Positions 4,872 through 35,037 are shown, counted from the first letter of the stretch. The stretch: 63,634 nt of DNA from Proteobacteria bacterium UBA6921 (GCA_002450895.1 DKAR01000036.1:236-63869); one strand, 5' to 3'. Translations and numbers: made by a program. Notes: generated from the sequence alone by a model not told the origin.

Positions 4872-4908
4872 TCGAAAACTCCTATCGGTTGTGATTGCGC
4901 GATAGTCT

Positions 4909-6254: not shown

Positions 6255-6256
6255 AC

Positions 6257-11546: not shown

Positions 11547-11564
11547 GAGTCACTCCGTCGTCAC
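11547..11564 (+). promoter_or_regulatory. Candidate Pho box upstream of the VPxP-tail / PstS-fold gene pair
   Basis: GAGTCAC-TCCG-TCGTCAC, with two GTCAC cores 11 bp apart. TGTAAT follows 9-10 nt later. The site is about 180 nt upstream of ATG 11744. Confidence 0.35.
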
Positions 11565-11743
11565 ACACGCCGCGTGTAATAGCGCCCGTTGCTCGGATTG
11601 GGGCGAGAGTGAGTTAGCAATCTCAAAGCCGACGCAATGCCGGATGACTCCGTGCCTCGTCTTTTTCATACATCTCTGCAGAAGGTGTACGGCGGGCGGA
11701 GCAGGGTCGAAGAGGAATCAACGAAACACAAAATGAGGATCCT

Positions 11744-16910: not shown

Positions 16911-16939
16911 GTTACTGAAACGTGACAGAACGATGACAG
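16911..16939 (-). promoter_or_regulatory. Pho box of the metallophosphoesterase promoter
   Basis: The minus strand reads CTGTCAT-CGTT-CTGTCAC-GTTT-CAGTAAC. The first 18 nt match the E. coli consensus CTGTCAT-N4-CTGTCAY exactly in both heptamers. The array ends about 55 nt upstream of ATG 16855. Confidence 0.8.
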
Positions 16940-17038: not shown

Positions 17039-17638
17039 CTATTGCGTGAGTGATGTAAATTCATCCAGGATGCTGCGCGCATGATCAGCGACGTCGGGAT
17101 CAGGATCGTGTGTCGCCGAACTGACAAGGGTGCGCAACGTGCCATCAGGATCCCCCGTGTTCCACGCCATGGTGCGAATGGAATCGAGCGTCAAATACCG
17201 GTTGGTGGATTGCTCATCGCGTAGCGACTCACTGAGCGCCAGACGCGCTTCTGCATTGTTGGCAGAGGCCAGAGTCTGGATGGCGGACGCGCGCCGCGCC
17301 GGGTCCTGGTCCAGCGTCGCCTGCCGAATCGCTTCGCGGGTCATGTCTTCAGGTCCCGGGGCAGCAACGGTTTCTTCGTTCGTGGCTGCACGGCGAATAG
17401 ATCCGGGAACACCTGTTGCTGGTGACGCGGAGCGCGGTACGGAAACAAGCGTATTTGAATGGAGCGGCACTGAATCCGGATTGGAACGTGCGGCCGTAGA
17501 AATCGGCGCCACCGAAATGTCATCGACAATATTTGGAAGTGTAATTCGGCTGACAAATTCGACGAGCGTGTAGGAAGCGAAAACGACTCCCGCGAGGGGA
17601 AGCGCAATCAGCCACTTCCAATGGTCGTTACGTTTCAT
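17039..17638 (-). CDS. Membrane-anchored protein with a HEAT-like repeat C-terminal domain
   Basis: N-terminal TM segment (WLIALPLAGVVFASYTLV), a Pro/Ser-rich linker, and helical repeats (DPARRASAIQTLA and HDPDPDVADHARSIL). It is divergent from the TPR-TpsA operon. Confidence 0.45.
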   Translation of the reverse strand: MKRNDHWKWLIALPLAGVVFASYTLVEFVSRITLPNIVDDISVAPISTAARSNPDSVPLHSNTLVSVPRSASPATGVPGSIRRAATNEETVAAPGPEDMTREAIRQATLDQDPARRASAIQTLASANNAEARLALSESLRDEQSTNRYLTLDSIRTMAWNTGDPDGTLRTLVSSATHDPDPDVADHARSILDEFTSLTQ

Positions 17639-17686
17639 TTTCTCTCAATTACAACTTTCGTTTTGTTTGCACGGTACAGCGACTTC

Positions 17687-17704
17687 GTGACGCGAAAATG
17701 ACGC
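17687..17704 (-). promoter_or_regulatory. Candidate Pho box facing the HEAT-like gene
   Basis: The minus strand reads GCGTCAT-TTTC-GCGTCAC, 49 nt upstream of ATG 17638. Confidence 0.4.
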
Positions 17705-17720
17705 GGCGCGCGCCGATGCC

Positions 17721-17738
17721 GTGTCATGCAAGCGTCAC
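17721..17738 (+). promoter_or_regulatory. Candidate Pho box facing the TPR-TpsA operon
   Basis: The plus strand reads GTGTCAT-GCAA-GCGTCAC. After an 11-nt gap comes TAAGCT (17750-17755). The box ends 45 nt upstream of ATG 17783. Confidence 0.45.
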
Positions 17739-17782
17739 AATTCCCGGTGTAAGCTGCGCGGCATTTCCGGAAGGGGCCCGAC

Positions 17783-18391
17783 ATGGCGACAGAATTCAGC
17801 GCGGATACACAGCCGTTCGCAACAGCAGTGTCATTGCATGAGCGGGGCGAGTGGGAAGCGGCGGCGCAGGCGTATCATCACGCCTTGGCGGTCGATCCAT
17901 CCAATATCGAAGTGTTGCACGGCGCGGGCATCCTCGCGTTACAAGTCGGTGATTTTTCGACCTCCGCTGAATTGCTCCGTCGTGCCGTCGTAAACGGTTC
18001 CCACGAACCGGACACCTATATGTTGCTGGGCCGTGCATTGAAGTCCGGCGGTGATCTTGATGCGGCGCTGGAAAACTTTTTTCACGCAATCTCGCGAGCC
18101 CCGGATTGGGCCGACGCCTATGTGCAGATCGGAATCGTGTTTCGGATGCAGAATCGCATGGCGGAAGCCGAAGTCGCGTATCGACAGGCTCTCGCGCTGA
18201 ATGCGAATTCCGTTGAAGCGCATATCAATCTGGGCAATGTGTTGCATCTGCGTGGTGATCTCGAAGCCGCCGTGCGTCATTACGAAATCGCGTTGGAGTT
18301 ATCACCCCAGTCCGAAACCGCGGCCACCAATCGCGACATCACCCTCAATGCGCAAGCCTATGCGCGCGGCGTGAATCCCGTACCGGCATGA
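17783..18391 (+). CDS. Tetratricopeptide-repeat protein, translationally coupled to tpsA
   Basis: Several 34-residue TPR units (for example AYVQIGIVFRMQNRMAEAEVAYRQALALNANSVE and AHINLGNVLHLRGDLEAAVRHYEIALELSP). Its TGA (18389-18391) overlaps the TpsA ATG (18388) as ATGA. Confidence 0.7.
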   Translation: MATEFSADTQPFATAVSLHERGEWEAAAQAYHHALAVDPSNIEVLHGAGILALQVGDFSTSAELLRRAVVNGSHEPDTYMLLGRALKSGGDLDAALENFFHAISRAPDWADAYVQIGIVFRMQNRMAEAEVAYRQALALNANSVEAHINLGNVLHLRGDLEAAVRHYEIALELSPQSETAATNRDITLNAQAYARGVNPVPA

Positions 18392-21300
18392 GTCATTCCG
18401 TGGTTAACCAATCTCTGACTGCACGCGCGCAAGCGCGACCCGGAAAGCGAAGGCTCCCGCCCGAGTTTCGGATGCGCCGGTGTTTTGCGCTGACCCTCAG
18501 CGCGATGGCAGCAATCGCCTGTGCGCCATCGCACGTCTCCGCGGAGCCGGCGAACACGGCGCTACCGACGGCATGTGGCAATGGTAACTGCGGCGGAAAG
18601 CAGTGGGTCACGCTCGGGTCCGCCAGCGCCAGCGTTCAGAACAATCAGATGAACGTGGTTGTTCAGGGGCAAACGGCGGTACTCAACTGGAGCAGCTTCA
18701 ACATCGGTGCGGATGCCGCCGTCAATTTTCAGCAGGACAACGCAACGGCCGTCGCGATCAACAAGATCGTCACCGAAAATCCCACCGAGATCTTCGGCCA
18801 GCTCACGGCCAACGGACAGATCTACCTGATCAATCCGAACCGGATTGTGTTTGGAAAGACAGCAAAAGTCGACGTCGGCGGACTCGTCGCGTCGACGCTC
18901 GAACTCACAGATGAAGCGCTCAAGGATGGTATCGCGGGCGCCATTCATAACTTGGGTCCCGACGGGAAGCCCGTTCCGGCATTCGTGGCGACGTATGATT
19001 CCTCCGGTCATGTCGTCAATGGCGATATCGAAATCCAGCAGGGCGCGTCGCTGAAAAGCGCCGATGGCGGCCGCATTCTCGTTTTTGCGCCGAACGTCGT
19101 GAACCGCGGTGACATCAACACGCCGAACGGTCAAACCATTCTCGCCGCGGGTAGCAAGATTTATCTCGCTGCTGCGCAAGCCGACGGGAATCGTGAGGAC
19201 AGCGATGTCGCCGGTCTGGTCGTTGAGGTCGATGTCAGTGAAATCAACAATGATGAGCTCACGAAATTTCTGCACGGTGAAACAACCCAGCTTCTGTTGG
19301 GCAGCGTCAACAACTACGGCTCGATCAATGCCGACGTCGGCAATATTTCTCTGGTCGGTCTGGCGGTAAATCAGTCCGGGCGCGTTACGGCAAAAACGTC
19401 CGTTCGTCGCAACGGAACAATTTTATTGCGTGCCGGTGACGGGATTGCCGCTGGAAACGTCGGCGCCAACGGTGGAAATCTTTCAAACTACTCCCCACGC
19501 GGCGGATTGGTCACGCTCGGTGCGGGGAGTGTTACGGAAATTATTCCGGACTCTGCGGACACCTCCGCAACGGCCGATGTCGTCGAGCAACCGAAGTCGC
19601 GCATAGATCTGCGCGGACATAGCGTGCACCTGCTGGGTGACGCACATGTCACAGCCACCAGCGGTGATGTGACGATCACTGCCCAACAGGATCCATCGCA
19701 GACGCTGGCGACCCAGGCCGACAACGATAGCCGCGTATTCATCGACGATGGCGCGGTCATTGACGTGTCCGGGGCCGCGGTGTCGCTATCGGCTGACCGA
19801 GCCACAGTAACGGTGCAGCTGCAGAGCGAGCAGCTCAAGGACAGCCCCGAGCAGCGGGACTCCGTCGTGAAGGGCGAATATGTCACGGTGGATATACGCC
19901 AGACCGGAGTCAATGCGGACGGTTCAACCTGGGTCGGTACGCCGCTGGCGGATATCACCGGTGCCATTCAGGCCGTGAATCGAACCGTGGATGAACGCAG
20001 CGTCGAAGGCGGAACCATCACGATTCGTTCGCAGGGCGACGTTATCGTCAGCGCCGGTGCCACGCTCGACATTTCCGGCGGACGAAAAGACTACGAAGCG
20101 GGTGTCATTCATACCACCAAGCTGGTCTCCGACGGAAAGTTGTACGACATTGGCGCCGCGGACCCGAACCGCCACTACGACGGCATTGCTGGACAGTACA
20201 CCCAGTCCTCGGCGAAGTGGGGCCAATCGAAGACCTGGAGCATGCTGGGCGAAGTCGGCACCTACTCCGCCGCGTTTACGCAGGGTGCCGACGCCGGCCA
20301 ACTGAACATCGATACGTCGCGCATGATTCTTGACGGAAAGGTGCGCGCCGACGTTGTCAAAGGCGACTATCAGAACGATTCGCAGTCGCGACCCGGCAAC
20401 GTCAGCGAAGATGTGTGGAGCGAATTGCCCAGCTCGATGGCGGCCCAGGGCACGTTTGTGTTTGGCAACACCGCGCAGGACACCGAGCCTGTGCATCGCT
20501 ATCGTGGCGATGATGTTGTCATTGAAGAACAGCAACTGCTTTCTCAATTGAAAGACTCCGGATTTGATCCGACACGCGATGCGCTACCCGAAACGCTGGA
20601 TCACATCACGATCCGGCCATCCCTGTTTTCCAGTGACGGAGTCGGAAGTGCCAGCATTCGCAGCAGCGAAACCGTGACGGTTGCGGCAGGCGCCAACGTA
20701 CAGATGAACGCGGGCAGTTCTCTGCAACTGATCGGCAGCACAGTAACTATTGACGGAAACGTCAGTGCGACTGGCGGCAACGTATCGGCACTCGCCGTAA
20801 AGACCGGAACGAACTCATTGAACGAAGGTCACGACGTCACACTGAGTCATGGGGCGTCGATCGACGTATCGGGAAGTTGGGTGAATGACGATCCGTTAAT
20901 TGCAGGCAGCACACGAGATCAGCGCTGGATCAATGGCGGCAGTGTTCAGCTCGAGGCCAAGCTCGGCAACATTGTAATGGAAAGCGATTCGAGCATTGAT
21001 GCATCTGGTTCCGCCTGGCTGAAGAGCGACGGAAAGATCAAGGCGGGCAGCGGTGGAAAGATCGACATAGTCACCGAGAGTGACGGAACATCCGTGACGC
21101 TCGATGGCGAATTGAGCGCGTATGGAATGTCACGCGGCGGCAGCCTCTCTATCACCACCGCGAATTCGATTTGTATCTCGACCGGAGTCTGCGACGGGTT
21201 GGCGAAAGAATCTGTACTGACATTGGTCCCGGATTTCTTCCAGCAGGGCGGGTTTGGTTCTTATTCCCTGACCAGCAAGTTTGGTGGACTGGTGGTTGCC

Positions 21301-24300
21301 GCGGGTACCGAGCTGAGCCCGCGCCAGCAAAATCTGGTACTCGACAGCGGCTATCGTTCCAGTGCCAGCGGCGCGGATCTCCGGACATTCAGCCATCTCG
21401 AAGAGCGTCCTGCGGAATCACGACGTGCGACGGATCTCACACTCAAGAGCAAATCTGAATTGCGCATTGAGTCAGGTGCGGTGATCGAAGCGGATGCGGG
21501 TAGCAAAGTCAGCCTCAGTTCAACCGACCGCATCTATGTTGACGGCACGGTACAGACGCACGGCGGAAGTATCGCACTCACCGTCAGTGACTATGCCGGG
21601 GGCGATGATGTCGTCGCCAATCAAGCGATCTGGCTGGGACAGAATGCGCGTCTTGATGTCAGCGGTACGACGCTGTTGCAACCCAGTCCCATCGGTCTGC
21701 GCGCCGGCACCGTTTACGACGGCGGAACAGTCAGTCTCACCGCCAACGCCGGATATGTGATCGCCGAAAGCGGATCGCTAATTAACGTGCCCGGGACGCA
21801 GGCCACGCTGGATCTTCCGGATGGCAACGGCGGATACACCGCGGTTGACGTGGGCAGCAATGCAGGAACGGTGCGAATCAAAAGCGCCGAGGGTGCGGTG
21901 CTGGAAGGTTCCATGGAGGGCCACGCCGGATCGGCGACGGCGCTCGGTGGCACGCTCGCGGTCACCATTGATGCCAACAATCGCGGCGAGCCGGGCGAAT
22001 TCACGCTCACCGCGGACAAGAACCACTTCTCTCACGACGATCGCGTGATCGAGGTAATTGACGATGTCGCCCAAAGCGCACTGAGCGGAACGACCTATGA
22101 AACATTCGGCGCCGCGTTCAGTGCACCGGACGCCGGCCACGCCGGTGTGTCGACGGTTCGCACGACAATGCTCGATCAAGGCGGGTTCGACGCACTGGAA
22201 CTTACTGCAAAAAATTTGCGTACGATTCCGGATCAATCGAACGACAATCAGGTGGATCTGCGCGCGTACGGTATTGTTCGAGTAGAAAGCGATCTGAATC
22301 TGGACCGACGCCTGGTTATCGATGCGCCCACGCTGGATGTCGCCGCCGACAGCGTCGTACTCGGTGCAGCCTATGTGGCCATCGGCTCACGGGAGGGACT
22401 GCTGACCGAGAGCGCTCCGACCACCACGTCGGATCATTCACTCACGGTCAATGCGCAGTGGTTGGATGTTGTCGGTCACAGTTCAATCATCAATACCAAC
22501 GACATCGCGCTGCACGCCGAAAGTGATTTGCGCCTGCGCCCGGTACCGTCGACAAATCTGGAAGACAATGCGCTTGCAATGACTGGTTCGTTGACGGTCG
22601 CGGGCCATCTCGAGTTGCAGGCCGACGTTGTCTACCCGGCCACGTTCACCGACCTTACGATCACCGCCAAGGACACGGCCGCGCCCGGTTCGATTACCGT
22701 ACTTCCCGGCGACGAAACGCACGGCGTCCTGTCGGCCGGTGGCGCGCTGCATCTCGTCGCCAATCAGATTGATCAGCGTGGTGTTTTGAAAGCACCGCTC
22801 GGCGTGATTGACCTGCAGGCGCACGGAACTGAGGCTGTGCCCGGAAATTTGGTGCTTGCCGAAGGAAGCGTAACGTCCACGTCGGCCGAGGGTCAGGTGA
22901 TTCCGGCCGGGCAGTCCGAAGGTGGCTTTGACTGGGTGTACAATATCAACAGCCAGACAAAACTTTTGTTCGGAGGCGAATTTGATCCCGTGCCGCAACA
23001 AAGCATTCAGTTGGGCGGCGACAACGTCGCGCTGAACGATGGCGCCAAACTTGATGCGTCCGGCGGCGGTGACCTGCAGTTGTACGAGTGGGTCAATGGC
23101 CTCGGTGGGTCGCGCGATATTCTCGATCCCGCGGTTTCGCCGCTCAGCTTTGCGGTCCTTCCGACCTTCGGCGAGACGATTGCGCCCTGGGATGAGCACG
23201 AGTCCGGTGCGTTTACTTCCAAATCTGTCGGGACGACGGTTTACCTCGAGGGTGTCGCCGGATTGCCAAGCGGTGAATATGCGGTACTGCCACCGCGTTA
23301 CGCGTTAATGCCCGGCGCCTATCTCATCACCGAGTTGCCGAATCTGCGCGATCGACCGGCCGGTCAGACCGGCATGCTGATCAACGGAACGCCGATCACC
23401 ACCGGTTACTTCGGCGTCGCCGGGACCGAGCAGCGCGAAGATCGCACGCGCGGATTCTCCGTAGTTTCGAGTGAATTATTGCGTGATGCCAACGATCCAC
23501 ATCGTCCGGCAGAGTACACCCTGACGCTCGCCAGTGAGTTCCTGGCGCAGCAGGCCGCCGACGGCGCGGTGGTCGGACGAATGCCGAACGATGCCGGCGT
23601 GGTTTCGATCGCCGCCGAGGATTCGCTGAATTTGCAGGCGCAGCTCATCGGCAATGCGGCCAACGGTGGTCGCGGTGCCGGCGTCGATATCGCCAGCGCC
23701 AATCTGGTGGTGACTGCCGATGGCGCCGGCGCTGCGGACGGCGGAATTCCAATATCCGCTGATGTATTAAATGGCCTGGGTGCGGAAAGCATTTTCCTCG
23801 GTGGCCGACGCAGCGAAGGCGCTGAAGGAACCGAACTGAATGTCATCAGCAACAACGTCACGATTGCCAGCGGTGCGAATCTAGTCGCACCCGAACTGAT
23901 CCTCGCTGCACGCGACACCGTCGTGCTTGCCGACGGCGCGACCGTCTCCGGCGCAGGCGAATCAAATCAGGAAGGTTCGAACTACGTTGTCAATGGCGAC
24001 GCAGCCATCATGCGTGTCAGCGGTGGTGCGCAAAGCGAACTGGTGCGCCATGCCGCATCCGGAAACGCCGGGTCGATCGATGTCGCGAGCGGCGCAACCG
24101 TAGCGGCGGACGGATCCGCGCTGTTCGACGTCAGCAAGAATCTGAGTTTCGCTGGAAACATCGATGTGCAAGGGGCTTCGCTGGCCGTCGGCGCTGCGCA
24201 GATCAATCTGGGAGATGTGCCGGCGAATACCGAAGGCTTTAACCTGGCATCGTCGACGTTGATCGGAATCAATGCCGACGAATTGCGGCTCAACGGACGT

Positions 24301-27300
24301 CAGTCGATCAACGTGTTCAGCGCCCCGATTATCGAGGCGCAGCGGCTGGTTCTGGATACGCCATTGCTTGAAGCGCGTGCCGGTAGCAGCGATGCAGTGA
24401 CCCAGGTTCACGCCGATGAAGTGATCCTGCGGAATTCGACCGGCAGTGCGGTCAGCTCGAATCCATCGGCACAAACGCACGGTTCGTTGCAGATCAGTGC
24501 GGGCAATGCGGACGCGGCGGGCGAGATCGAACAGGGTCAGGGCACAGTCACGGTTGCCGGATTCGATGCGGTTAAGCTGACTTCGACCGGCGCGATCTAC
24601 GGGCGCGATACCGGCACACTCAATACCGGCGCCGCCGATGTCACGCTGGATGCCGGCGTGATCAGCGGTCATCGTGGCTCGGAAACGACGATCACCACGC
24701 AAGGGCGCGTCGACATCGCCGCGTCGAACACGGCGTCGTCCGCGCTGGCGGACGACGCAATCGGCGCGACGCTGTCCATCAATGCGGACACAATCCATGA
24801 CGACGGCCGAATCGTCATGGCGTCGGGTGCTGTGAATCTGCATGCCACAGGTGCCTACGGTGTGACACTCGACCCGAACGGCGTCATCGATGTGAGCGGT
24901 GTCGTGCGCGACTTCACCGTAACGACGCGCCCTTCACCGGGCGGTAACGTTGAGATCGTCGCAGACTCCGGCAATATCACGCTCAACGCAGGCTCGAGTA
25001 TTTCCGTCGCCGGTGCGGTGACTGCCGACGGTCTCGGTGCCGATGCCGGAAGCCTGACGCTGCGCGCACCGCAAGGAACAGTAAAAGTTGAAAGCGATCT
25101 GGACGGCAGCGCGCAAAGCGATCAGCGCCAGGGACGCGCAACGATCGACGCGCGTCGTATCGACAACCTCGCCGCATTGAATCTCGCGCTGAACAATGCG
25201 GCATTCAATGACGAACGCGTATTGCGAATCCGGGAAGGTGACGTCGACCTGGATACGGACATCACCGCGCATCGCATCGACATCACAGTTGATGGCGGCG
25301 CACTGACAGTGGGAAATCAAAACGCAAACGTCACCCTCGACGCCAGCGGCAACGAAGGCGGACACGTGCGTCTCGCTGCGCGCGACGACGTGCAGGTGAG
25401 TTCCGGCGTGACCATCGATGCCAGCGGTAGTGAAGGCGACGGTGGCAATGTTGAGCTGATGAGTTCGGAAGGCGTGGTGCAAACGGAGCAGGGCAGCACC
25501 ATCGACGTGTCGCACGGTTCCGAAGGTGACGCACAAGACGGCGAAGTTCACGCGCGCGTCAACGAGAGCGTGTTGCTTCCGCTGGCCAGCGGTGGCACGT
25601 CAGCAATGGAATTGAAGGGAACCGTGATCGGTTCGCCGGTGATCGTCGAAGGCGTGCATGTCACCAGTCTCGACAGCGTCGGCGGTGTCATTGGCGATGC
25701 TGAAATTGCCAACGCGCGCGGCAGCGCGGATGCGTTTATGGCCAATGCGACACCGATCGAAGCGGCGCTGGAGAAATACGGCACCGATGTCGAACTTCGT
25801 CCTGGCGTGGAACTGGTTTCCAGCACCGACCTGACACTGAATACGCCATGGGATCTGATCGATTGGCGCTATGGCGGCGCGCCTGGTGTTTTAACACTGC
25901 GTGCCGCCGGCGATGTGAATATCAATCAAACGTTGTCCGACGGAATGATGTTCGACTGGATTGCGTATGCGTCGCTGCCAGCGGCGGGACCCTCGTGGAG
26001 CTACAGGATCGCCGCCGGCGCGGATCTGGCCAGTGCATCTCCGTTCGGTCTTGCGGCGTCGAGCGAACGCACCCGGACGGGAAGCATCGCCATTGCACCC
26101 GGCTATGTTGGCACGAGTATTTACGATCCGACGGTGCAAACCGCGGTGCGCACCGGAACGGGCGATGTCGAAATGGCGGCGGCGGGGAATGTCGAACTCG
26201 GCAATGCCGCCTCGGTGATCTACACCGCCGGGACTCCGGTCAGCGGAATCAGTGCGTCCATGCGTGAATCGCTGGACTACATCTGGGGATTCACCGCCGC
26301 ATTTCCCGAAAACGGCGGCGATATCATCGTGCGCGCGGGCGGTGACATGACGGGCGCATCAAGCCACCATCTCGTGACCGAGTGGCTATGGCGCATGGGA
26401 TCCGATGCTGCGACGACCGGCGAAATGCCCACGGCCTGGGGAATACAGTTCGATCAATTCACCGACGGCATCGGTGCATTGGGTGGCGGCAACGTCACAC
26501 TTGTTGCCGCGCGCGACATTGACAACGTCTCCGCCGCCATTCCGACGGTGGGCGTTCCATTGGGAGCAACGCCTGCGGACAATGAGCTGCACGTCACCGG
26601 CGGTGGCATACTGCGCGTCGAAGCCGGACGGGATATCTACGGCGGGATGTACTTTGTCGGTGCTGGTCAGGGAATGTTGGCGGCCGGCGGTGACATTGCG
26701 CGTGCCGCGGGCGACAGCAACGGCGCGTCGTATTTGAAAATCGCCCTCGGCGATGCGGAAGTCGGCGTCAGTGCGCGGGGCTCCATTGATGTGGGGTCAG
26801 TGTTTAATCCCACGATCATTCCGCAAAGCCAGTCGGCGGGTGCCTATGGTTTCGATCCAACCATCGACTTTCTGACCTACCAACCCGACAGTCGTGCCGA
26901 TTTCACGGCGATTGCTGGCGCCGTCCACTATCACGACAGTGCCGATGCGACGGTCAATGATGCCAGGGACGGGCTTTACGGCGTCAACGACTATACCGTT
27001 CAGGCAGAATTGCTGCGCATGTTGCCACCGACGCTTACGATGCAGGCGCTCGGCGGTGATATTGTCGTTGGCGGAACCGGCGCGGACAACGGATCGGGCA
27101 AGATTCTGAAACTTGCACCCGCCGTGTCCGGACAACTCGAGCTGCTTGCCGAGGGTGACGTGCGCTTGTACGACGGGATCCTGCTGTCAGATACGAATCC
27201 GGAAAATCTTCCCACGCCGGAGGCGCCGGGCCGATTTTTCCCGGCGTCCAGCGATTCGCTGCTGACACAACTCTTTGCAGAGTATTCGCCGCAGTTTCGA

Positions 27301-28818
27301 TCGCTCGATGCACCATTGCACGCGAACGATGCCGGCGATCCGGTGTTCGTCGTCGCGCAGCACGGCGATCTGGACATGACGACGTGGACGAAGCAATCCT
27401 TTAAATCCGGATTGTGGCTTGCGAAGTCTGCCGAGATCGTGGCGGGACGAGACATTCTTGATCCGGACATCGCGATTCAACACGCCAATGTCGGCGATGT
27501 GAGCCAGATCGTGGCCGGACGCGATATTCGTTATGAGACCGAACGTGACTCGAAAACGCGGCGCATCGTTCCCAAAGGAATTGCCAGCCAGAAAAGCATC
27601 GTCGTTGATGGTCCCGGCGAGGTACTGGTTTCCGCCGGTCGCGATGTCGATCTGGGGGCGTCCAGTGCCGGTATCCTGACCCGCGGTGATGTCGTCAATC
27701 CGGCCTTGGCGGATAACGGAGCCAACCTGACGGTGCTTGCCGGTATTGGAACAGGCGCCGACTACGCCACGTTCATCGATACATACATCAACGGTCGTGA
27801 CGATTACCACGATGCATTGATCGCCTACATGCAGTCGCGCGGCGCGCTTGTCTATACCTACACCGACGCCGTTGCCCAATTCGATGTGTTGAGTCGATCC
27901 GAGCAAATGCCGTTTCTCGAACGCATCTTGTTCACGGAAATGCGTATTGCCGGGCGGGATGCGGCGACGAGCGGCAGCGGCGATTACTCGCGTGGGTACA
28001 CGGCGATCAGCGCATTGTTCCCGGATCCCGATGCACAAGGCCGACTCGCGCTGTATTTCAGTCGCGTCTATACCCTCGACGGTGGCGATATCAATCTGAT
28101 GGTGCCCGGTGGGGAAGTGAACGTGGGATTGGCCGCGCTCCCGACGTCGTTCGGTATCACCAAGAAGCCCGAAGAACTGGGTATCGTGACGCAGAGCACC
28201 GGCAGCGTGAATATCCTCGCGCGTGACGATGTGCTGGTGAACACGTCGCGCGTCTTCGCCGGGGATGGCGGGTCCATTCTGATCTGGTCATCCGAAGGTG
28301 ACATTGATGCGGGTCGCGGCGCCAAGACGGCCATCTCCGCGCCGCCGCCGGAAATCACTGTGGATCCGGCCACCGGACAAGCCAAGATTGTCTACAAGGC
28401 CGCGTTGAACGGCAGCGGCATTCGCGCGTTCGTTACCACGGAAGGTCGCGCTGCTGGTGATGTCGATTTGTTCGCACCGAGCGGCGTCATCAATGTGAAC
28501 GATGCCGGCATTGGTTCGGCCGGCAACATCACCATAGGCGCCACCGAAGTGATCGGGTCCGACAACATCGACGTCGGTGGCGTCGCAGTCGGTATTCCGT
28601 CCGTCGATACGAGCAGCCTGTCGTCCTCGTTGTCCGGCGTTGCCGCCGCGGGCGCGACCAAGAGCGCTGAACAAAATGCGAGCGACAGCGCAGGCGCTTC
28701 CGACAAATCGACAACGCCTATCGCAGACGCCGCCGTCAGCTTCCTTGAAGTGGAGGTGCTCGGTTTCGGCGAAGACGACGAAGAAGAAAAGAAAAAACGC
28801 GAGCAGGAATCCAAGTAG
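18388..28818 (+). CDS. Giant TpsA exoprotein (filamentous haemagglutinin family, 3476 aa)
   Basis: An extended N-terminal signal region is followed by a TPS domain (VLNWSSFNIGADAAVNF...AINKIV...ANGQIYLINPNRIVFG...GGLVASTLEL). Thousands of residues of Gly/Ala/Ser/Asp-rich beta-helix repeat follow. A conserved C-terminal region reads GGDINLMVPGGEVNVG...GGSILIWSSEGDIDAGRGAKT...GDVDLFAPSGVINVNDAGI. The tail is charged (GEDDEEEKKKREQESK). Confidence 0.9.
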   Translation: MSHSVVNQSLTARAQARPGKRRLPPEFRMRRCFALTLSAMAAIACAPSHVSAEPANTALPTACGNGNCGGKQWVTLGSASASVQNNQMNVVVQGQTAVLNWSSFNIGADAAVNFQQDNATAVAINKIVTENPTEIFGQLTANGQIYLINPNRIVFGKTAKVDVGGLVASTLELTDEALKDGIAGAIHNLGPDGKPVPAFVATYDSSGHVVNGDIEIQQGASLKSADGGRILVFAPNVVNRGDINTPNGQTILAAGSKIYLAAAQADGNREDSDVAGLVVEVDVSEINNDELTKFLHGETTQLLLGSVNNYGSINADVGNISLVGLAVNQSGRVTAKTSVRRNGTILLRAGDGIAAGNVGANGGNLSNYSPRGGLVTLGAGSVTEIIPDSADTSATADVVEQPKSRIDLRGHSVHLLGDAHVTATSGDVTITAQQDPSQTLATQADNDSRVFIDDGAVIDVSGAAVSLSADRATVTVQLQSEQLKDSPEQRDSVVKGEYVTVDIRQTGVNADGSTWVGTPLADITGAIQAVNRTVDERSVEGGTITIRSQGDVIVSAGATLDISGGRKDYEAGVIHTTKLVSDGKLYDIGAADPNRHYDGIAGQYTQSSAKWGQSKTWSMLGEVGTYSAAFTQGADAGQLNIDTSRMILDGKVRADVVKGDYQNDSQSRPGNVSEDVWSELPSSMAAQGTFVFGNTAQDTEPVHRYRGDDVVIEEQQLLSQLKDSGFDPTRDALPETLDHITIRPSLFSSDGVGSASIRSSETVTVAAGANVQMNAGSSLQLIGSTVTIDGNVSATGGNVSALAVKTGTNSLNEGHDVTLSHGASIDVSGSWVNDDPLIAGSTRDQRWINGGSVQLEAKLGNIVMESDSSIDASGSAWLKSDGKIKAGSGGKIDIVTESDGTSVTLDGELSAYGMSRGGSLSITTANSICISTGVCDGLAKESVLTLVPDFFQQGGFGSYSLTSKFGGLVVAAGTELSPRQQNLVLDSGYRSSASGADLRTFSHLEERPAESRRATDLTLKSKSELRIESGAVIEADAGSKVSLSSTDRIYVDGTVQTHGGSIALTVSDYAGGDDVVANQAIWLGQNARLDVSGTTLLQPSPIGLRAGTVYDGGTVSLTANAGYVIAESGSLINVPGTQATLDLPDGNGGYTAVDVGSNAGTVRIKSAEGAVLEGSMEGHAGSATALGGTLAVTIDANNRGEPGEFTLTADKNHFSHDDRVIEVIDDVAQSALSGTTYETFGAAFSAPDAGHAGVSTVRTTMLDQGGFDALELTAKNLRTIPDQSNDNQVDLRAYGIVRVESDLNLDRRLVIDAPTLDVAADSVVLGAAYVAIGSREGLLTESAPTTTSDHSLTVNAQWLDVVGHSSIINTNDIALHAESDLRLRPVPSTNLEDNALAMTGSLTVAGHLELQADVVYPATFTDLTITAKDTAAPGSITVLPGDETHGVLSAGGALHLVANQIDQRGVLKAPLGVIDLQAHGTEAVPGNLVLAEGSVTSTSAEGQVIPAGQSEGGFDWVYNINSQTKLLFGGEFDPVPQQSIQLGGDNVALNDGAKLDASGGGDLQLYEWVNGLGGSRDILDPAVSPLSFAVLPTFGETIAPWDEHESGAFTSKSVGTTVYLEGVAGLPSGEYAVLPPRYALMPGAYLITELPNLRDRPAGQTGMLINGTPITTGYFGVAGTEQREDRTRGFSVVSSELLRDANDPHRPAEYTLTLASEFLAQQAADGAVVGRMPNDAGVVSIAAEDSLNLQAQLIGNAANGGRGAGVDIASANLVVTADGAGAADGGIPISADVLNGLGAESIFLGGRRSEGAEGTELNVISNNVTIASGANLVAPELILAARDTVVLADGATVSGAGESNQEGSNYVVNGDAAIMRVSGGAQSELVRHAASGNAGSIDVASGATVAADGSALFDVSKNLSFAGNIDVQGASLAVGAAQINLGDVPANTEGFNLASSTLIGINADELRLNGRQSINVFSAPIIEAQRLVLDTPLLEARAGSSDAVTQVHADEVILRNSTGSAVSSNPSAQTHGSLQISAGNADAAGEIEQGQGTVTVAGFDAVKLTSTGAIYGRDTGTLNTGAADVTLDAGVISGHRGSETTITTQGRVDIAASNTASSALADDAIGATLSINADTIHDDGRIVMASGAVNLHATGAYGVTLDPNGVIDVSGVVRDFTVTTRPSPGGNVEIVADSGNITLNAGSSISVAGAVTADGLGADAGSLTLRAPQGTVKVESDLDGSAQSDQRQGRATIDARRIDNLAALNLALNNAAFNDERVLRIREGDVDLDTDITAHRIDITVDGGALTVGNQNANVTLDASGNEGGHVRLAARDDVQVSSGVTIDASGSEGDGGNVELMSSEGVVQTEQGSTIDVSHGSEGDAQDGEVHARVNESVLLPLASGGTSAMELKGTVIGSPVIVEGVHVTSLDSVGGVIGDAEIANARGSADAFMANATPIEAALEKYGTDVELRPGVELVSSTDLTLNTPWDLIDWRYGGAPGVLTLRAAGDVNINQTLSDGMMFDWIAYASLPAAGPSWSYRIAAGADLASASPFGLAASSERTRTGSIAIAPGYVGTSIYDPTVQTAVRTGTGDVEMAAAGNVELGNAASVIYTAGTPVSGISASMRESLDYIWGFTAAFPENGGDIIVRAGGDMTGASSHHLVTEWLWRMGSDAATTGEMPTAWGIQFDQFTDGIGALGGGNVTLVAARDIDNVSAAIPTVGVPLGATPADNELHVTGGGILRVEAGRDIYGGMYFVGAGQGMLAAGGDIARAAGDSNGASYLKIALGDAEVGVSARGSIDVGSVFNPTIIPQSQSAGAYGFDPTIDFLTYQPDSRADFTAIAGAVHYHDSADATVNDARDGLYGVNDYTVQAELLRMLPPTLTMQALGGDIVVGGTGADNGSGKILKLAPAVSGQLELLAEGDVRLYDGILLSDTNPENLPTPEAPGRFFPASSDSLLTQLFAEYSPQFRSLDAPLHANDAGDPVFVVAQHGDLDMTTWTKQSFKSGLWLAKSAEIVAGRDILDPDIAIQHANVGDVSQIVAGRDIRYETERDSKTRRIVPKGIASQKSIVVDGPGEVLVSAGRDVDLGASSAGILTRGDVVNPALADNGANLTVLAGIGTGADYATFIDTYINGRDDYHDALIAYMQSRGALVYTYTDAVAQFDVLSRSEQMPFLERILFTEMRIAGRDAATSGSGDYSRGYTAISALFPDPDAQGRLALYFSRVYTLDGGDINLMVPGGEVNVGLAALPTSFGITKKPEELGIVTQSTGSVNILARDDVLVNTSRVFAGDGGSILIWSSEGDIDAGRGAKTAISAPPPEITVDPATGQAKIVYKAALNGSGIRAFVTTEGRAAGDVDLFAPSGVINVNDAGIGSAGNITIGATEVIGSDNIDVGGVAVGIPSVDTSSLSSSLSGVAAAGATKSAEQNASDSAGASDKSTTPIADAAVSFLEVEVLGFGEDDEEEKKKREQESK

Positions 28819-30032: not shown

Positions 30033-30277
30033 ACGGCGGCCGCATGCGAGCGGGATGCTCGCTCCATATGCCTAAGGCACTGTTGGCTGTACCTCCCATA
30101 AGAAAGCGCGGGCGGCGTGAGCGCGCCGCCCGCCGAATAACACCTTCCCGGGCCCTCCCGTCGCTGTCACGGAACTGCAATACGTCCCGCCGATAATTCG
30201 TCCGCGCCGCGCGTTACAACCCGATGCGATGTTCCGCGGACGTTGCAGGCTGGCCCGAATCAACCAAGGACACTTTC

Positions 30278-32092
30278 ATGGCAAAACGACTCGCCGCGAC
30301 ACTCTTCCTGTTTTGCCTGGTTCCCTCGCTGGCACAGGCCTGGTGGAATGACAGCTGGGATTTTCGAAAACAGATCAGTATCGATACCAGTGTGACCGGC
30401 GCCGACATCAAGGGCGCGGTCAGCAATGTTCCGGTGCTCGTGCGCCTGCATACCGGAAACTTTCCGTATTTCAAGGACGCAAAGCCCGACGGTTCCGACC
30501 TGCGTTTTGTCGCCGGCGATGACAAAACGCCTTTGAAGTTTCATGTTGAAAGCTATGACTCGGTCAATGAGATCGCATTGATCTGGGTCAAGGTGCCCGG
30601 CGTACAGGGTAACAGCACCAGCGAAAAATTCTGGATGTACTACGGAAACGCGGATGCGCCGGCGGCGCCTGATGCCGGTGGCACCTGGGATACCCAACAA
30701 GCGCTGGCGCTTCATTTCGATGCGGACGCGGGTGCGCCGCAGGATCGCACCGCGTACGGCAATCACCCCGCCAGTTCGACGGCCGTGCGCAATCCCAATT
30801 CGCTCATCGGCGGCGGTGTGCGTTTCAGCGGCAGCGAGTCGATTGCCATCAATCCGTCGCCTTCGCTGTTGATGAAACCGGAATCGGGCTGGACTTTCGC
30901 GGCATGGATCAAGCCCCAGGGACCGCAACAGGAAACTGCCTTGCTGTACAGCCGCGACGGCAATGCCTCGCTGATGTTCGGAATCAAGGACGCGCGTCTG
31001 TTCGCACGCTATCGCAACGCGGACGGAAAGGTCGCAGAGATTCCGGCGGATGGAACGCTGAATCTCGGAACCTGGACCCACGTCGCGATGACGCTGGGCG
31101 CGGGACGCATTGCCATCTTCATTAATGGAAACGAAACAGCGTCGGCGAACGCGGTCCTTACCGAGAAGGGCGGCAAAATTATTATCGGCGCCAGCGAAGG
31201 CGCCAACTTCTTCATCGGCGAAATGGATGAAGTGGAAATTTCGAATATTGCGCGCAGCGCGGACTGGATCAAGCTCGCCGCGCGGGGTCAGGGTGCGGAA
31301 GGCACGCTGCTGCATTACGCGGAAGACGAGCAGAACAAGGGCGGTGGCGGAACGTCGTACTTCTCGGTCATTCTCCAGAACGTCACGATCGACGGTTGGG
31401 TGGTGATCGTTCTGCTGGCCGTCATGGCGGTCATAAGCTGGGTGGTGATGTTCGGCAAGGGCGTCGTGATCAATCGCGTGCGCCGCGACAATCGCGCGTT
31501 CCTGGATCAGTTCAAGAAGCTCGGCGCGCGTGATCCAGATGCGCTGGATGCAAAAGACTCCGAGGACGACAAGGAACTCGCCGGATCTCCGCTTTCGCAG
31601 GCGCTGTTTGGAAAGCATGATCATTTCCAGAGCTCGGCGCTCTATCACATCTATCACACTGGCATTCAGGAACTGCACTATCGCGTTGGCAAGGCGGTCG
31701 GAGCGCAGGCCGCCGGACTGTCACATCAGGCCGTGGATGCAATCCGTGCGTCGCTGGATGCCGCGGTCGTGCGTGAAACACAGAAGCTGAACAGCCAGAT
31801 GGTGTTGCTCACGATCGCCATTTCCGGGGGGCCGTTTCTCGGACTGTTGGGCACGGTCGTGGGCGTCATGATCACGTTCGCCGCGATTGCGGCCAGCGGT
31901 GACGTCAACATCAATGCCATCGCGCCAGGCATCGCGGCAGCTCTCGTTGCCACGGTCGCCGGACTCGCCGTCGCGATTCCTGCACTGTTTGGTTACAACT
32001 ACCTGTTGTCGCGGGTCAAGGAATGCGTCGCCGACATGCAGGTGTTCGTGGATGAGTTCGTAACGAAACTGGCGGAACACTACGGGCGCTAA
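30278..32092 (+). CDS. exbB: Fusion protein: signal peptide, DUF2341-like and LamG/concanavalin-like domains, then a C-terminal MotA/TolQ/ExbB proton-channel domain
   Basis: Signal peptide MAKRLAATLFLFCLVPSLAQA. The DUF2341-like N-terminus reads WWNDSWDFRKQISID...VPVLVRLH...GSDLRFV...LKFHVESYD. The LamG-like segment reads WTFAAWIKPQG...LFGIKD...WTHVAMT...IFINGNE. The ExbB core reads LLTIAISGGPFLGLLGTVVGVMITFAAIA...IAPGIAAALVATVAGLAVAIPALFGYNYL. Confidence 0.8.
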   Translation: MAKRLAATLFLFCLVPSLAQAWWNDSWDFRKQISIDTSVTGADIKGAVSNVPVLVRLHTGNFPYFKDAKPDGSDLRFVAGDDKTPLKFHVESYDSVNEIALIWVKVPGVQGNSTSEKFWMYYGNADAPAAPDAGGTWDTQQALALHFDADAGAPQDRTAYGNHPASSTAVRNPNSLIGGGVRFSGSESIAINPSPSLLMKPESGWTFAAWIKPQGPQQETALLYSRDGNASLMFGIKDARLFARYRNADGKVAEIPADGTLNLGTWTHVAMTLGAGRIAIFINGNETASANAVLTEKGGKIIIGASEGANFFIGEMDEVEISNIARSADWIKLAARGQGAEGTLLHYAEDEQNKGGGGTSYFSVILQNVTIDGWVVIVLLAVMAVISWVVMFGKGVVINRVRRDNRAFLDQFKKLGARDPDALDAKDSEDDKELAGSPLSQALFGKHDHFQSSALYHIYHTGIQELHYRVGKAVGAQAAGLSHQAVDAIRASLDAAVVRETQKLNSQMVLLTIAISGGPFLGLLGTVVGVMITFAAIAASGDVNINAIAPGIAAALVATVAGLAVAIPALFGYNYLLSRVKECVADMQVFVDEFVTKLAEHYGR

Positions 32093-32134
32093 CGCGCTCG
32101 CCTGACTCCCGTCAACGCATATCAGGACCCGACA

Positions 32135-32539
32135 ATGCGCGCGCAAACCGAAGCCAATCTTTACGACGACATCAACATCACGCCGATGCTGGATCTGGCG
32201 TATGTGTTGTTGGTGATCTTCATCATCATGACGACTGCCACCGTGCAGGGAATCAAAGTCAATCTGCCGAAGGCCAGCGCGACGCCGAGCCTGCACAAGC
32301 CGCAGACCAAGGCGATCACCATTTCTCAGGACGGAACCATCTTTCTCGATACATACCCGGTGACGCTGAACGAGCTTGAGGCGCGACTGCAGAGTTACAA
32401 GGCGGTGAACCCGGATCTACCGGTCATTGTGAAAGGCGACGCGTCGATTCAATACCAGCGCGTTATCGAAGTCCTGGATTTGCTCGGTCGCCTGGAGATC
32501 ACGCAGCTCGGACTCGTGACCCAGCGCGTTGTTAAATAG
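32135..32539 (+). CDS. exbD: Biopolymer transport protein ExbD/TolR
   Basis: 134 aa. N-terminal TM motif INITPMLDLAYVLLVIFIIM and a periplasmic domain with ...ITISQDGTIFLD...VIVKGDASIQYQRVIEVLDLL. Confidence 0.85.
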   Translation: MRAQTEANLYDDINITPMLDLAYVLLVIFIIMTTATVQGIKVNLPKASATPSLHKPQTKAITISQDGTIFLDTYPVTLNELEARLQSYKAVNPDLPVIVKGDASIQYQRVIEVLDLLGRLEITQLGLVTQRVVK

Positions 32540-32559
32540 TTGATGATCGGCCGCGTCTC

Positions 32560-33219
32560 ATGACCACGCGCGCGCATTACAAAAAATACCTGCCCCAAAT
32601 AGCAGGCGGGACACTGGTCGTTGCGGTGCTTGCCGGTCTGATTGCGTTCATCCAGCACATGCTGAATTCATCGACACCGATCGGTAAAAAAGCCGTTCAA
32701 CAAATCACGCTGCTGCAGCCGCCACCGCCGCCGCCACCCCCGCCGAAAGTTGAGGAACCGCCGCCGGAGCCTGAAGTCGTCGAAGACAAAACGCCCGATC
32801 CAGATCCACAACAGACAGACAACACGGCGGATGACGTCCCGCCGGGCACGGATCTTGGTCTCGACGCTGACGGAGGTGCCGGCGGCGATCTGTTCGGTCT
32901 GGTCGGGCGCAAGGGCGGTCGTGATCTGATCGGCAGCCGCGGCAGCATGGAGGCGTGGTATGCGAACGTCATCAAGTCTGACGTGCAGGATCTTCTTTAC
33001 GAAGATCCCGCCGTGCGCAAAAAACGTTACGCCGTCGATGTGCGTTTCTGGATCGATCCGGAAGGACACGTAAAACGTTTTGAGTTGCTGCGAACGAGCG
33101 GCGACCGCGATATGGATGGCGCGCTGAAAACCGCGCTGCGAAATTTTTCCAAGGTGCGTGAACGTCCGCCGGAGGAATTGCCACGTTCCTTCACGATCCG
33201 CATCACATCACGTCTTTAG
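32560..33219 (+). CDS. tonB: TonB-family energy transducer
   Basis: N-terminal TM anchor (GGTLVVAVLAGLIAFI), a proline-rich spacer (PPPPPPPPPPKVEEPPPEPE) and a TonB-C-like domain (YAVDVRFWIDPEGHVKRFELLRTSGDRDMDGALKTAL). Confidence 0.7.
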   Translation: MTTRAHYKKYLPQIAGGTLVVAVLAGLIAFIQHMLNSSTPIGKKAVQQITLLQPPPPPPPPPKVEEPPPEPEVVEDKTPDPDPQQTDNTADDVPPGTDLGLDADGGAGGDLFGLVGRKGGRDLIGSRGSMEAWYANVIKSDVQDLLYEDPAVRKKRYAVDVRFWIDPEGHVKRFELLRTSGDRDMDGALKTALRNFSKVRERPPEELPRSFTIRITSRL

Positions 33220-33228
33220 GAATTCGCC

Positions 33229-35037
33229 GTGCAGGCACGATTTCTGGAAACACAAAAAAAGGAACGACTTGTGATTTCAAAAGGGCATACAACGAAAATA
33301 ATACTGGCCGCATTTTGTATGGGGTCGTGGTCGCTGCTCTCGAGTGCCGCAGAAATCACCACGCCGCCGCCTGCGCCCGAACCGGGCGTGACGCCGGAAC
33401 AACCCAAGCCGGAGGCGTCGCCCGCCGACCAAGCCATGCCCGATGTTTCGCCGGAAACCCAGCGCGAGGCGGAGTCACTGGTGAATGCGGTGAAAAAACG
33501 CGTTGCGAACGAAAACCAGCAGGCGCCGCTGCCGCCGGCGGAAACCAATGCGATCCGCGTGACGCATGTTCCGGAAACCATCAAGAACGAGATTCGCGAA
33601 CAGGTCAAAGCGGAGTTGCACGATCAGATCGTGCAGGATGTCTTCACGCAGGCGCGCAATGAACAGTGGGGTTTGCCGCAGGCGCTGCCATCGTGGGTGA
33701 ACAAGTTTTCGCTGAAGGGTGATATGCGCCTGCGCGAGCAGGGGGACTATTTCGACAGCGGGAACATCGGTTGCAACATCAGCGACGGGTATGTTGACTT
33801 TAATGTCGTAAACGCCAAGGGTGGCGTCGGTAAAGCCGGCCTGGATCGCTGTATCAACACAACAGAAGATCGCCAGCGTCTGCGCACCCGTGCCCGGCTC
33901 GGGGCGGATGCAAAAGTGAACGACACGTTGAAAGCGGTGCTGCGAATAAGCACCGGCAACACACGCGATCCGGTATCCACCAATCAGACGCTTGGCAATT
34001 ATGGTGGCCGGTACGGTGTGGTGTGGGATGAAGCCTATTTGCGCTACGACGGTATGGACCTGGATCGCTTTCCCTGGCTGACGCTCTATGGCGGGCGCAT
34101 GGCGAATCCCTGGCTGTCGACTGATCTCGTTTGGGACAACGACCTGGCGTTCGAAGGCCTTGCCGGGACGATGCGCTTCAATTTGCGCGGGTCGGGAAAT
34201 TTGCTCGACATGAATGAACGGGACCGAATTCTGTTCCTCACTGTCGGTGCATTCCCGTTGCAGGAAGTCGAGCTATCAAAACGGGACAAGTGGCTTTATG
34301 GCGTTCAGCTGGGGACGGATTTGATCTTTCTTAACCAGTCTACGCTGCGAATTGGTCTCGCGTACTACCACTACGAAAACATTACCGGAGTGCGCAATTC
34401 ACTCGATTCCGTGGACTATGACTTTACCGCACCGGGGTATGTGCAAAAAGGCAATGGCCTGTTCGATATCCGCAACGACGACTCAACGTCGGATCCTCTG
34501 GGGAATTCGGATTATTGGGCGCTGGCCGCGGACTACAAACTTGCGGACCTCACCATTCAGTACGACAGTCTCGCACTCGCGCCACATCACATTGTTACAA
34601 CGATCGACGTGGTCAAGAACATCGGGTATGACAAGGGTGAAATCTGGAAGCGCACCAACGGCAATGGCGTGCAGTATGCCGGCGGATTTGCGACCAATGT
34701 GGGCGCGAGCGATTCCGAAAAAGCCGCCGCGTCCGTCAAGGAACGCTCGCTCGGATATCAGGTGATGCTCAGCTATGGATGGCCGATTGTCGCGGAGCGC
34801 TATACGTGGCGGGTGCACGGTGAATATCGTTACCTGCAACGCGACGCGGTGCTGGATGCGTTTACCGATTCAGACTTTCATCTGGGCGGCACGGATGCCA
34901 AGGGGTGGATCATCGGCGGCGACTACGCCATCGACGAGAACACTGTATTGTCATTCCGATATTTGACTTCCGATTCGATCGACGCCGCGCCGTTGTCGAT
35001 CGATTCCGTTCAGCTGGATCTTTCCGCCAAATTCTGA
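33229..35037 (+). CDS. Outer-membrane beta-barrel (putative porin family) with a Pro-rich, helical N-terminal extension
   Basis: Signal peptide ...SWSLLSSAAE, then a PAPEPGVTPEQPKPE linker. Alternating beta-strand sequence follows (FSLKGDMRLREQGDY..., LRTRARLGADAKVN, VLRISTGN, GYQVMLSYGW, WRVHGEYRYLQRD). The C-terminal residue is aromatic (...LDLSAKF). The exact start is uncertain (GTG 33229). Confidence 0.5.
   Translation: MQARFLETQKKERLVISKGHTTKIILAAFCMGSWSLLSSAAEITTPPPAPEPGVTPEQPKPEASPADQAMPDVSPETQREAESLVNAVKKRVANENQQAPLPPAETNAIRVTHVPETIKNEIREQVKAELHDQIVQDVFTQARNEQWGLPQALPSWVNKFSLKGDMRLREQGDYFDSGNIGCNISDGYVDFNVVNAKGGVGKAGLDRCINTTEDRQRLRTRARLGADAKVNDTLKAVLRISTGNTRDPVSTNQTLGNYGGRYGVVWDEAYLRYDGMDLDRFPWLTLYGGRMANPWLSTDLVWDNDLAFEGLAGTMRFNLRGSGNLLDMNERDRILFLTVGAFPLQEVELSKRDKWLYGVQLGTDLIFLNQSTLRIGLAYYHYENITGVRNSLDSVDYDFTAPGYVQKGNGLFDIRNDDSTSDPLGNSDYWALAADYKLADLTIQYDSLALAPHHIVTTIDVVKNIGYDKGEIWKRTNGNGVQYAGGFATNVGASDSEKAAASVKERSLGYQVMLSYGWPIVAERYTWRVHGEYRYLQRDAVLDAFTDSDFHLGGTDAKGWIIGGDYAIDENTVLSFRYLTSDSIDAAPLSIDSVQLDLSAKF

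Follow-up and report, generated by a model that had tools for sequence, protein, structure and literature searches.

A giant PdtA-type exoprotein gene preceded by a TPR gene of probable glycosyltransferase ancestry and a candidate pair of divergent PhoB-activated promoters

We analysed a stretch of 63,634 nucleotides (nt) from Proteobacteria bacterium UBA6921 (GCA_002450895.1, DKAR01000036.1:236-63869; hereafter the window, in whose coordinates all positions are given), which carries the gene of a giant two-partner secretion (TPS) exoprotein, TpsA, and directly before it a small tetratricopeptide repeat (TPR) gene. The tpsA gene (18388..28818, plus strand) encodes a PdtA-type protein of 3476 amino acids (aa) with a TPS domain and a C-terminal DUF3739 domain. 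The TPR gene (17783..18391, plus strand) encodes a 202-aa protein that matches many Pfam TPR families and consists of TPRs only, and it has a ribosome-binding site, GAAGGGG, at 17770-17776. On the minus strand lies the gene of a 199-aa HEAT protein (17039..17638; Pfam HEAT_2) with an N-terminal membrane anchor, so that an intergenic span of 144 bp (17639-17782) separates two divergent genes. The stop codon of the TPR gene and the start codon of the 3476-aa open reading frame (ORF) share the sequence ATGA at 18388-18391. A preliminary description of this DNA had named the 144-bp gap, two 18-nt elements within it, the hexamer TAAGCT and the ATGA junction, and every coordinate that it gave matches the sequence. 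The TPR-tpsA junction was reproduced by contigs from a second sample (run X2; 17976-18407 and 18395-18700) with zero differences. As these contigs are independent, the junction is not an assembly artefact. All sequencing runs that contain this DNA are DNA metagenomes, from which alone the organism is known; a search for RNA-seq runs listed none.

The two 18-nt elements resemble Pho boxes and stand back to back, 16 nt apart, each facing one of the divergent genes. The element toward the HEAT gene is GCGTCAT-TTTC-GCGTCAC (17687..17704, minus strand; plus-strand reading GTGACGCGAAAATGACGC), and the element toward the TPR-tpsA operon is GTGTCAT-GCAA-GCGTCAC (17721..17738, plus strand). Both comprise two 7-bp direct repeats of the TGTCAY type with a 4-bp spacer, in 11-bp phase. 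Candidate −10 hexamers follow: TAAGCT (17750..17755, plus strand) stands 11 nt (17739-17749) after the plus-strand box, and TACCGT (17671..17676, minus strand) stands 10 nt downstream of the minus-strand box, where it would serve a leftward HEAT promoter. This spacing of 10-11 nt between box and TAnnnT is the design also seen at the window's own pstC promoter (CTGTAAC-ATTT-CTGTCAT, then 10 nt, then TACGAT) and phoB promoter (CTGTAAC-GGAA-ATGTAAC, then 10 nt, then TACGAT); the pstS promoter box is TTGTCAT-GAAA-ATGTAAC. A scan of the 144-bp region for the sigma-70 consensus found no −35/−10 pair. The missing −35 is compatible with activator-dependent promoters but is no proof of them. The elements thus have in common with the Pho boxes of pst/phoB promoters the phase of the heptamers, the distance to a −10-like hexamer and the lack of a −35, but differ in that their heptamers are mostly GCGTCAY rather than CTGTCAT and that two boxes stand back to back for divergent genes.

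Copies of the pattern GTCAYN6GTCAY are more numerous in the window than expected (seven against 0.81), a number that none of 100 shuffled sequences reached, and all but one of the seven are intergenic and face a gene. With a matrix of 30 heptamers taken from the window's other sites, from which the two tested elements were excluded, the plus-strand element ranked third (17.1 bits) and the minus-strand element seventh (15.7 bits) among 127,234 positions, compared with 16.4 bits for the pstS box and 15.0 bits for the phoB box; note that the same loose pattern had picked most of the training sites. The pstS, pstC and phoB anchors are independent of that pattern because they are defined by gene identity. 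The cognate regulators PhoB and PhoR are themselves encoded within the window, where pstA, pstC, pstS, phoR and phoB form a Pho island on the minus strand (3-6946), with phoR (4929-6398) and phoB (6257-~6946) beside pstSCA.

For comparison with related loci, genome contigs were scanned with an alignment of TpsA N-termini, and the window's proteins were mapped onto the best 80. Locus L001 has the same layout, with HEAT on the minus strand and TPR and tpsA on the plus strand, and all three of its high-scoring sites fall in its HEAT/TPR intergenic region. They align in register with both window elements, with diverged spacers, and their heptamers are more canonical: CTGTCAT-GCGG-CTTTCAT on the minus strand and CTGTCAT-CCCG-GTGTAAC-GCAA-GCGTCAC on the plus strand. 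The L001 ortholog of the minus-strand box, CTGTCATGCGGCTTTCAT, scores 18.0 bits and is followed after 10 nt by TAACGT in the leftward promoter, and the aligned plus-strand box, GTGTAAC-GCAA-GCGTCAC, precedes a TAAGCT identical to that of the window. In L091, GTGTCAC-GCAA-ACGTCAC, 11 nt and TAAAGT stand ahead of a full-length gene in which TPRs are joined to a glycosyltransferase family 41 (GT41) domain, so that the rightward core of box, 11 nt and −10 is common to the window, L001 and L091. Boxes followed after 10 nt by TACAAT or TAAGAT also precede a co-directional pair of HEAT and TPR-GT41 genes in L090 and L092.

It is highly improbable that the two elements are sites of another regulator of the OmpR family, or direct repeats that arose by chance. 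Such a reading would account for CGTCAY in place of the canonical TGTCAY, as seen in three of the four heptamers, and for the absence of any Pho box of at least 12.5 bits from the HEAT/TPR-GT41 junctions of L003 and L084. Enrichment, rank, −10 spacing and the missing −35 all fit a Pho box, and sites have been kept in L001 and L091, with equivalent boxes in L090 and L092. Moreover, where the window has CGTCAY heptamers, relatives have canonical CTGTCAT or GTGTAAC, and CGTCAY heptamers also occur in the window's other Pho-island promoters. As L003 and L084 lack a strong box despite a full TPR-GT41 gene beside tpsA, the promoter is not universal in the clade. On this evidence, namely the match to the window's pstS, pstC and phoB boxes, the right spacing, the lack of a −35 and the retention in relatives, the Pho-box assignment of the preliminary description is well supported.

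Further boxes of this kind lie elsewhere in the window and in the family. Strong boxes stand directly upstream of tpsB in 9, of exbB in 8 and of tpsA in 7 of the 80 family loci, counts made without a shuffle control. The window's exbB gene is preceded by a separate site, CTGTCACGGAACTGCAAT (30164..30181, plus strand; 14.8 bits), 42 nt upstream, from which the motor genes may have a phosphate-controlled promoter of their own. In two Methylomonas loci (L036, 9579-9623; L037, 9580-9624), overlapping sites, TTGTAATAAATATGTAAT on the minus strand and CTGTAATAAATATGTAAT on the plus strand, precede tpsA by about 250 nt. Together they make up an AT-rich, palindromic version of the box, readable on both strands.

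The exoprotein itself carries the TPS domain (PF05860) at residues 81-261 and DUF3739 (PF12545) at residues 3294-3404, and TIGR01901 also matches. The strings VENN, VDNN and ELYN are absent from TpsA, Pfam detected the TPS and DUF3739 domains only and no toxin domain, and the gene that follows tpsA encodes an XrtM-like exosortase (28837-29376, plus strand; Pfam and NCBIfam) rather than an immunity protein. The protein had earlier been called an adhesin-type TpsA and not a CdiA on the grounds that it has neither a VENN-type boundary nor a neighbouring immunity ORF. With a DUF3739 tail and no VENN-type boundary, that call stands. The C-terminus of TpsA (28740-28818) reads ...VSFLEVEVLGFGEDDEEEKKKREQESK, a short hydrophobic motif followed by a charge block that is first acidic and then basic. 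A literature search on DUF3739 returned nothing relevant.

Genes for a LamG/DUF2341-ExbB protein, ExbD, TonB and a Porin_5 porin (30224..35037, plus strand; Pfam) complete a cluster of the PdtA type, together with a TpsB transporter (9599..11284, plus strand; Pfam POTRA_2, ShlB and Omp85) encoded 7 kb upstream of tpsA. We assign the locus to this cluster type by its domain content and the order of its genes. PdtA/PdtB of Pseudomonas aeruginosa had been mentioned only as a precedent, and the likeness goes further than that, as the gene content (tpsA, tpsB, exbB, exbD, tonB and porin) is that of the same cluster type. The P. aeruginosa locus, PA0690-PA0697, comprises pdtA, phdA, pdtB, exbB2, exbD2, tonB4 and a porin gene (PA0696) (PMC7035377). 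It is induced by phosphate limitation via PhoB, and its pho box was proven by mutagenesis and electrophoretic mobility shift assay (PMC4971064, PMC7035377; reviewed in PMC5422565). Phosphate control is therefore already known for this cluster type, and the window only adds a further case, in an uncultured gammaproteobacterium. Both loci encode a giant TPS exoprotein and its TpsB and, after them, ExbB-ExbD-TonB and a porin, in an order that fits PA0693-PA0696 (PMC7035377). The two loci differ in three respects. First, the P. aeruginosa pho box lies upstream of a −35/−10 pair read by the extracytoplasmic function (ECF) sigma factor VreI, whereas in the window the box stands where a −35 would be, in the manner of E. 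coli pst-type promoters; no ECF sigma gene was recognized among the window ORFs scanned. Second, P. aeruginosa has phdA between pdtA and pdtB. Third, HEAT, TPR and GT41 genes are not described there. No Pseudomonas locus was among the best 80 from the scan with the TpsA N-terminus profile.

The window's tpsB gene is displaced, as relatives usually have tpsB right before tpsA. Upstream DNA of 2 kb or more was available at 68 of the 80 loci. There, tpsA was directly preceded by tpsB in 48, by a PstS-like 519-aa gene (p519) in eight, by a TPR-bearing gene in one (L003) and by another gene in 11. For more distant TpsA homologues (43-45% identity in the N-terminal region), tpsB is likewise the gene directly before tpsA. 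An overlap of TPR gene and tpsA conserved among homologous loci, which the preliminary description had set as its own test, was not found, as a TPR-bearing gene precedes tpsA in 1 of 68 loci and L001 has a gap of 17 nt. The TPR coupling is lineage-specific and is not a trait of the family.

Close homologues of the TPR protein that likewise consist of TPRs only are rare: a search of 5.8 billion proteins gave one, that of L001, with 59% identity. After that homologue, the nearest kin are N-terminal parts of TPR-GT41 proteins. The window protein is 46.5% identical to residues 31-189 of a 719-aa protein of L003, in which N-terminal TPRs are joined to a GT41 domain. The gene of this protein lies directly upstream of tpsA, with a divergent HEAT gene before it. 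The closest solved relatives of the L003 protein over the catalytic domain are SPINDLY (1e-96), human OGT and XcOGT, and the best natural PDB matches of the window protein are the TPR domain of human OGT (E about 1e-52 to 1e-44) and SPINDLY (4e-31). The window protein has the N-terminal TPR superhelix of SPINDLY/OGT-like GT41 enzymes and lacks their catalytic domain: PF13844 does not match the 202-aa protein, and a tblastn search of the whole 63.6-kb window with the GT41 part gave no match. It ends after about five repeats and, in contrast to SPINDLY/OGT and XcOGT, would be a derivative of the GT41 family rather than a member.

Gene order and phylogeny point in the same direction. In a tree built from TpsA residues 61-1500, the window falls into a clade with L083, L003 and L084 (Shimodaira-Hasegawa-like approximate likelihood-ratio test, 100), in all three of which a GT41 gene lies directly upstream of tpsA. 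The clade also holds L085, with p519 upstream, and its sister groups have tpsB upstream. L084 shares synteny with the window; its order is TpsB, a 283-aa protein (p283), p519, HEAT-like (minus strand), TPR-GT41, TpsA and ExbB-ExbD-TonB-porin. HEAT homologues adjoin a TPR or TPR-GT41 gene in L001, L003 and L084, and HEAT_2 genes lie directly upstream of TPR-GT41 in L090 and L092. When the search was made from the GT41 side, three of the four nearest homologues examined stood in the order TpsB, a gene of ~220-240 aa, TPR-GT41, p283, p519 and, in part, TpsA; the gene of ~220-240 aa matched Pfam HEAT_2 in L090 and L092 and had no Pfam match on the Joint Genome Institute (JGI) contig. The fourth follows a p519 gene. 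In the p283-p519 operons, TpsA comes after p519 where the contig reaches that far. The simplest history is that HEAT and TPR-GT41 entered this type of cluster as a module, and that the TPR gene descends from a SPINDLY/OGT-like TPR-GT41 gene whose catalytic domain was lost afterwards in the lineage of the window and L001. Judged by its recurrent position, the HEAT gene is a conserved partner of the TPR(-GT41) gene; the preliminary description had missed both this partnership and the enzyme ancestry of the TPR gene. HEAT and TPR-GT41 together form an accessory module inside the PdtA-type clusters of this clade, and this module, with the TPR gene as its conserved relic, is the new content of our analysis. 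Such a module was not reported for PdtA-type clusters in the literature searched, which yielded work on the HMW1C type only.

One route for the loss was considered. A C-terminal tail of the TPR-only protein taken over from the C-terminal tail of TPR-GT41, by an internal in-frame deletion, found no backing in local alignments against shuffled controls (p = 0.05-0.87). A separate case of apparent breakage was seen in L002 (9992-12148), where a 260-aa TPR protein (P0004), 41% identical to that of the window, looks like the front of a broken TPR-GT41 gene. Pieces resembling GT41 (10888-11514 and 11537-12106) follow it in the same direction and do not form one ORF. A second, intact TPR-GT41 gene lies in the vicinity, with two sulfotransferase genes, a TPS gene and a POTRA gene.

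If the TPR ORF were a functionless leftover of a deleted glycosyltransferase gene, kept only by the passage of ribosomes to tpsA or because the deletion is recent, the lost catalytic domain and the single other TPR-only homologue among so many proteins would be readily explained. Yet the proteins of the window and L001 have diverged to 59% identity with both ORFs intact at 200-202 aa, and their C-terminal tails align. Furthermore, non-synonymous change between the two genes is far below synonymous change (proportions of changed sites, pN 0.24 and pS 0.71; Fisher p = 6e-24). The corresponding rates are 0.30 for dN and near 2.2, which is saturated, for dS, so that dN/dS is about 0.14, and the constraint equals that on the TpsA N-terminus. 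From these comparisons the TPR-only gene is under purifying selection, and we regard a functionless remnant as very unlikely.

A split enzyme, in which the TPR-only protein still supplies substrate to a GT41 catalytic protein whose gene lies in another part of the genome, seems somewhat less far-fetched but is still distinctly doubtful. TPR-GT41 genes often occur in at least two copies near such clusters (L003, L013, L052, L058 and L065), and a 483-aa GT41-only protein (P0165) is among the homologues. However, no GT41 is encoded in the window, and no such split OGT appears in the literature that we searched. As the GT41 domain is absent from the window, glycosylation cannot be assigned to the TPR gene.

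Whether the TPR gene and tpsA overlap depends on the tpsA start codon, since the overlap exists only if tpsA is taken to start at ATG 18388. A start at Met29 (ATG 18472) would give a protein of 3448 aa and leave an untranslated gap of 80 nt after the TPR gene, with co-transcription but no translational coupling. This is how the protein is listed in a public collection (P0022, 3448 aa), where the gene caller's Met29 start leaves no overlap, and the sequence from Met29, MRRCFALTLSAMAAIACAPSHVSA followed by E, is a textbook 24-aa Sec signal. In addition, the aligned codon of L001 is TTG, itself a possible start, and the overlap is not conserved among relatives, whose gaps are 13-20 nt (L001, 17 nt; L084, 13 nt; L003, 20 nt). 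In L083, the GT41 stop overlaps the tpsA start as TGATG. However, the signal regions of the five clade relatives all measure 41-54 aa, among which the 24 aa of the short start would be an outlier and the 52 aa of the long start fits. In L001 as in the window, the reading frame stays open from the stop codon of the TPR gene onward, and the two N-terminal extensions share the motif P-x-E-F-basic-x-R-R and differ in length by 6 aa (18 nt), that is, by whole codons. Neither candidate start has a good ribosome-binding site, and no GGAG-like motif precedes 18388, which favours reinitiation at the overlap. We consider the Met29 start unlikely, and take the upstream ATG at 18388, and with it the overlap, to be the more probable. 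The overlap is particular to the window genome. No terminator-like hairpin was found between the TPR gene and tpsA, so co-transcription is likely with either start. The preliminary description had called the two genes almost certainly co-translated; the ATGA overlap on which it relied is present, but with an ambiguous start codon and an overlap that is not conserved, that wording was too strong.

Glycosyltransferases as third partners of TPS systems have been described. In HMW1A/HMW1B/HMW1C of Haemophilus influenzae and EtpBAC of E. coli, the third partner is a cytoplasmic GT41 glycosyltransferase, and HMW1C glycosylates the adhesin before export (PMC5422565, PMC3012730, PMC3983070). The window's closest relatives likewise have an enzyme of the GT41 family tight against tpsA. 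Their enzyme differs from HMW1C in that it belongs to the SPINDLY/OGT branch with canonical TPRs, whereas only the HMW1C type was found in this role in the literature, and in that it is encoded upstream of tpsA and has a HEAT protein as its partner. As a cytoplasmic TPR protein of ~200 aa that stands alone and is encoded directly before its presumed client, the window protein also recalls the class II chaperones of type III secretion of the LcrH/SycD type. The NCBIfam LcrH_SycD match is weak, at 45.9 bits far under the family cut-off of 104.8 bits, and with an OGT-like ancestry the resemblance would be one of functional analogy only.

Taken together, these observations suggest the following model. 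The 144-bp region would contain back-to-back PhoB-activated promoters, in each of which the box replaces the −35 and TAnnnT follows 10-11 nt downstream. PhoB would bind both sites. In phosphate-starved cells the membrane-anchored HEAT protein would be expressed from the left promoter, and from the right promoter an operon that runs from the small TPR protein straight into the giant exoprotein gene. The TPR protein has no signal peptide and is expected to be cytoplasmic, as are OGT-type enzymes. In the ancestral state, as seen in the closest relatives, TPR-GT41 and HEAT would have formed an accessory module preceded by a Pho box and, in several of them, tight against tpsA. The window lineage would have kept about five TPR repeats, in a gene whose stop overlaps the likeliest start of a tpsA that has no ribosome-binding site of its own, so that ribosomes finishing the TPR gene may reinitiate on tpsA. 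From ancestry and gene position, we infer that the TPR protein may have kept the capacity to bind substrate, and may hold or guide unfolded TpsA, or another protein of the cluster, before export.

We judge this model as a whole, a divergent PhoB-activated promoter pair serving a PdtA-type TpsA and a TPR relic of TPR-GT41 joined to its gene, to be probable. Several points weigh against it. The prevalence of CGTCAY over the commoner TGTCAY in the heptamers, the boxless junctions of L003 and L084, the 3448-aa database entry and the TTG of L001 have been given above. In addition, the HEAT domain probably lies in the periplasm and the TPR protein in the cytoplasm, which makes a direct complex of the two not obvious.

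The new point is that a PdtA-type cluster is linked to a module of HEAT and OGT/SPINDLY-like TPR-GT41. Bacterial OGT-like enzymes are widespread, and few have been assigned a substrate. Tight and repeated linkage to the gene of a giant exoprotein offers a concrete candidate substrate for an enzyme of this kind. We know of no function yet for PdtA-type clusters, and a dedicated accessory factor would provide a handle on them. Furthermore, the window represents a natural experiment in which the TPR part was kept and the enzyme part lost, and it bears on whether TPR domains of the OGT type can act alone. More speculatively, HEAT and the SPINDLY/OGT-like TPR-GT41 could be a phosphate-starvation-controlled module that O-glycosylates TpsA in the cytoplasm before Sec and TpsB export, by a GT41 branch other than that of HMW1C. 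The window would then be a natural domain deletion. It would show that the TPR superhelix can act by itself and without glycosylation, for example as a holder or pilot of the 3476-aa precursor, and that translational coupling places its synthesis beside this client. We put this forward only tentatively.

A TPR-GT41 gene without a tpsA gene on its contig was also observed. In L091 (5419-9399), the Pho-box-preceded TPR-GT41 gene is followed by the gene of a 1326-aa protein with RHS/YD repeats and He_PIG, and there is no TpsA within the contig. The client of the enzyme may thus not always be TpsA.

The window also departs from its relatives in the arrangement of other genes. Compared with their order, TpsB-[HEAT-TPR-GT41]-p283-p519-TpsA, additional genes between 9599 and 17638 separate p519 from the HEAT gene, and the HEAT gene is inverted. 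The additional genes after p519 encode an aquaporin-like protein, an ArsC-like protein and a 360-aa secreted phosphoesterase, and the gene of the last carries the window's top Pho box (16922-16939, 20.5 bits). On the other side of tpsA, the slot before exbB is occupied in the window by the XrtM-like exosortase and its 309-aa partner, and in L084 (20200-22021) by a DsbC-like thioredoxin gene and a He_PIG-domain gene. This slot appears to take variable accessory genes.

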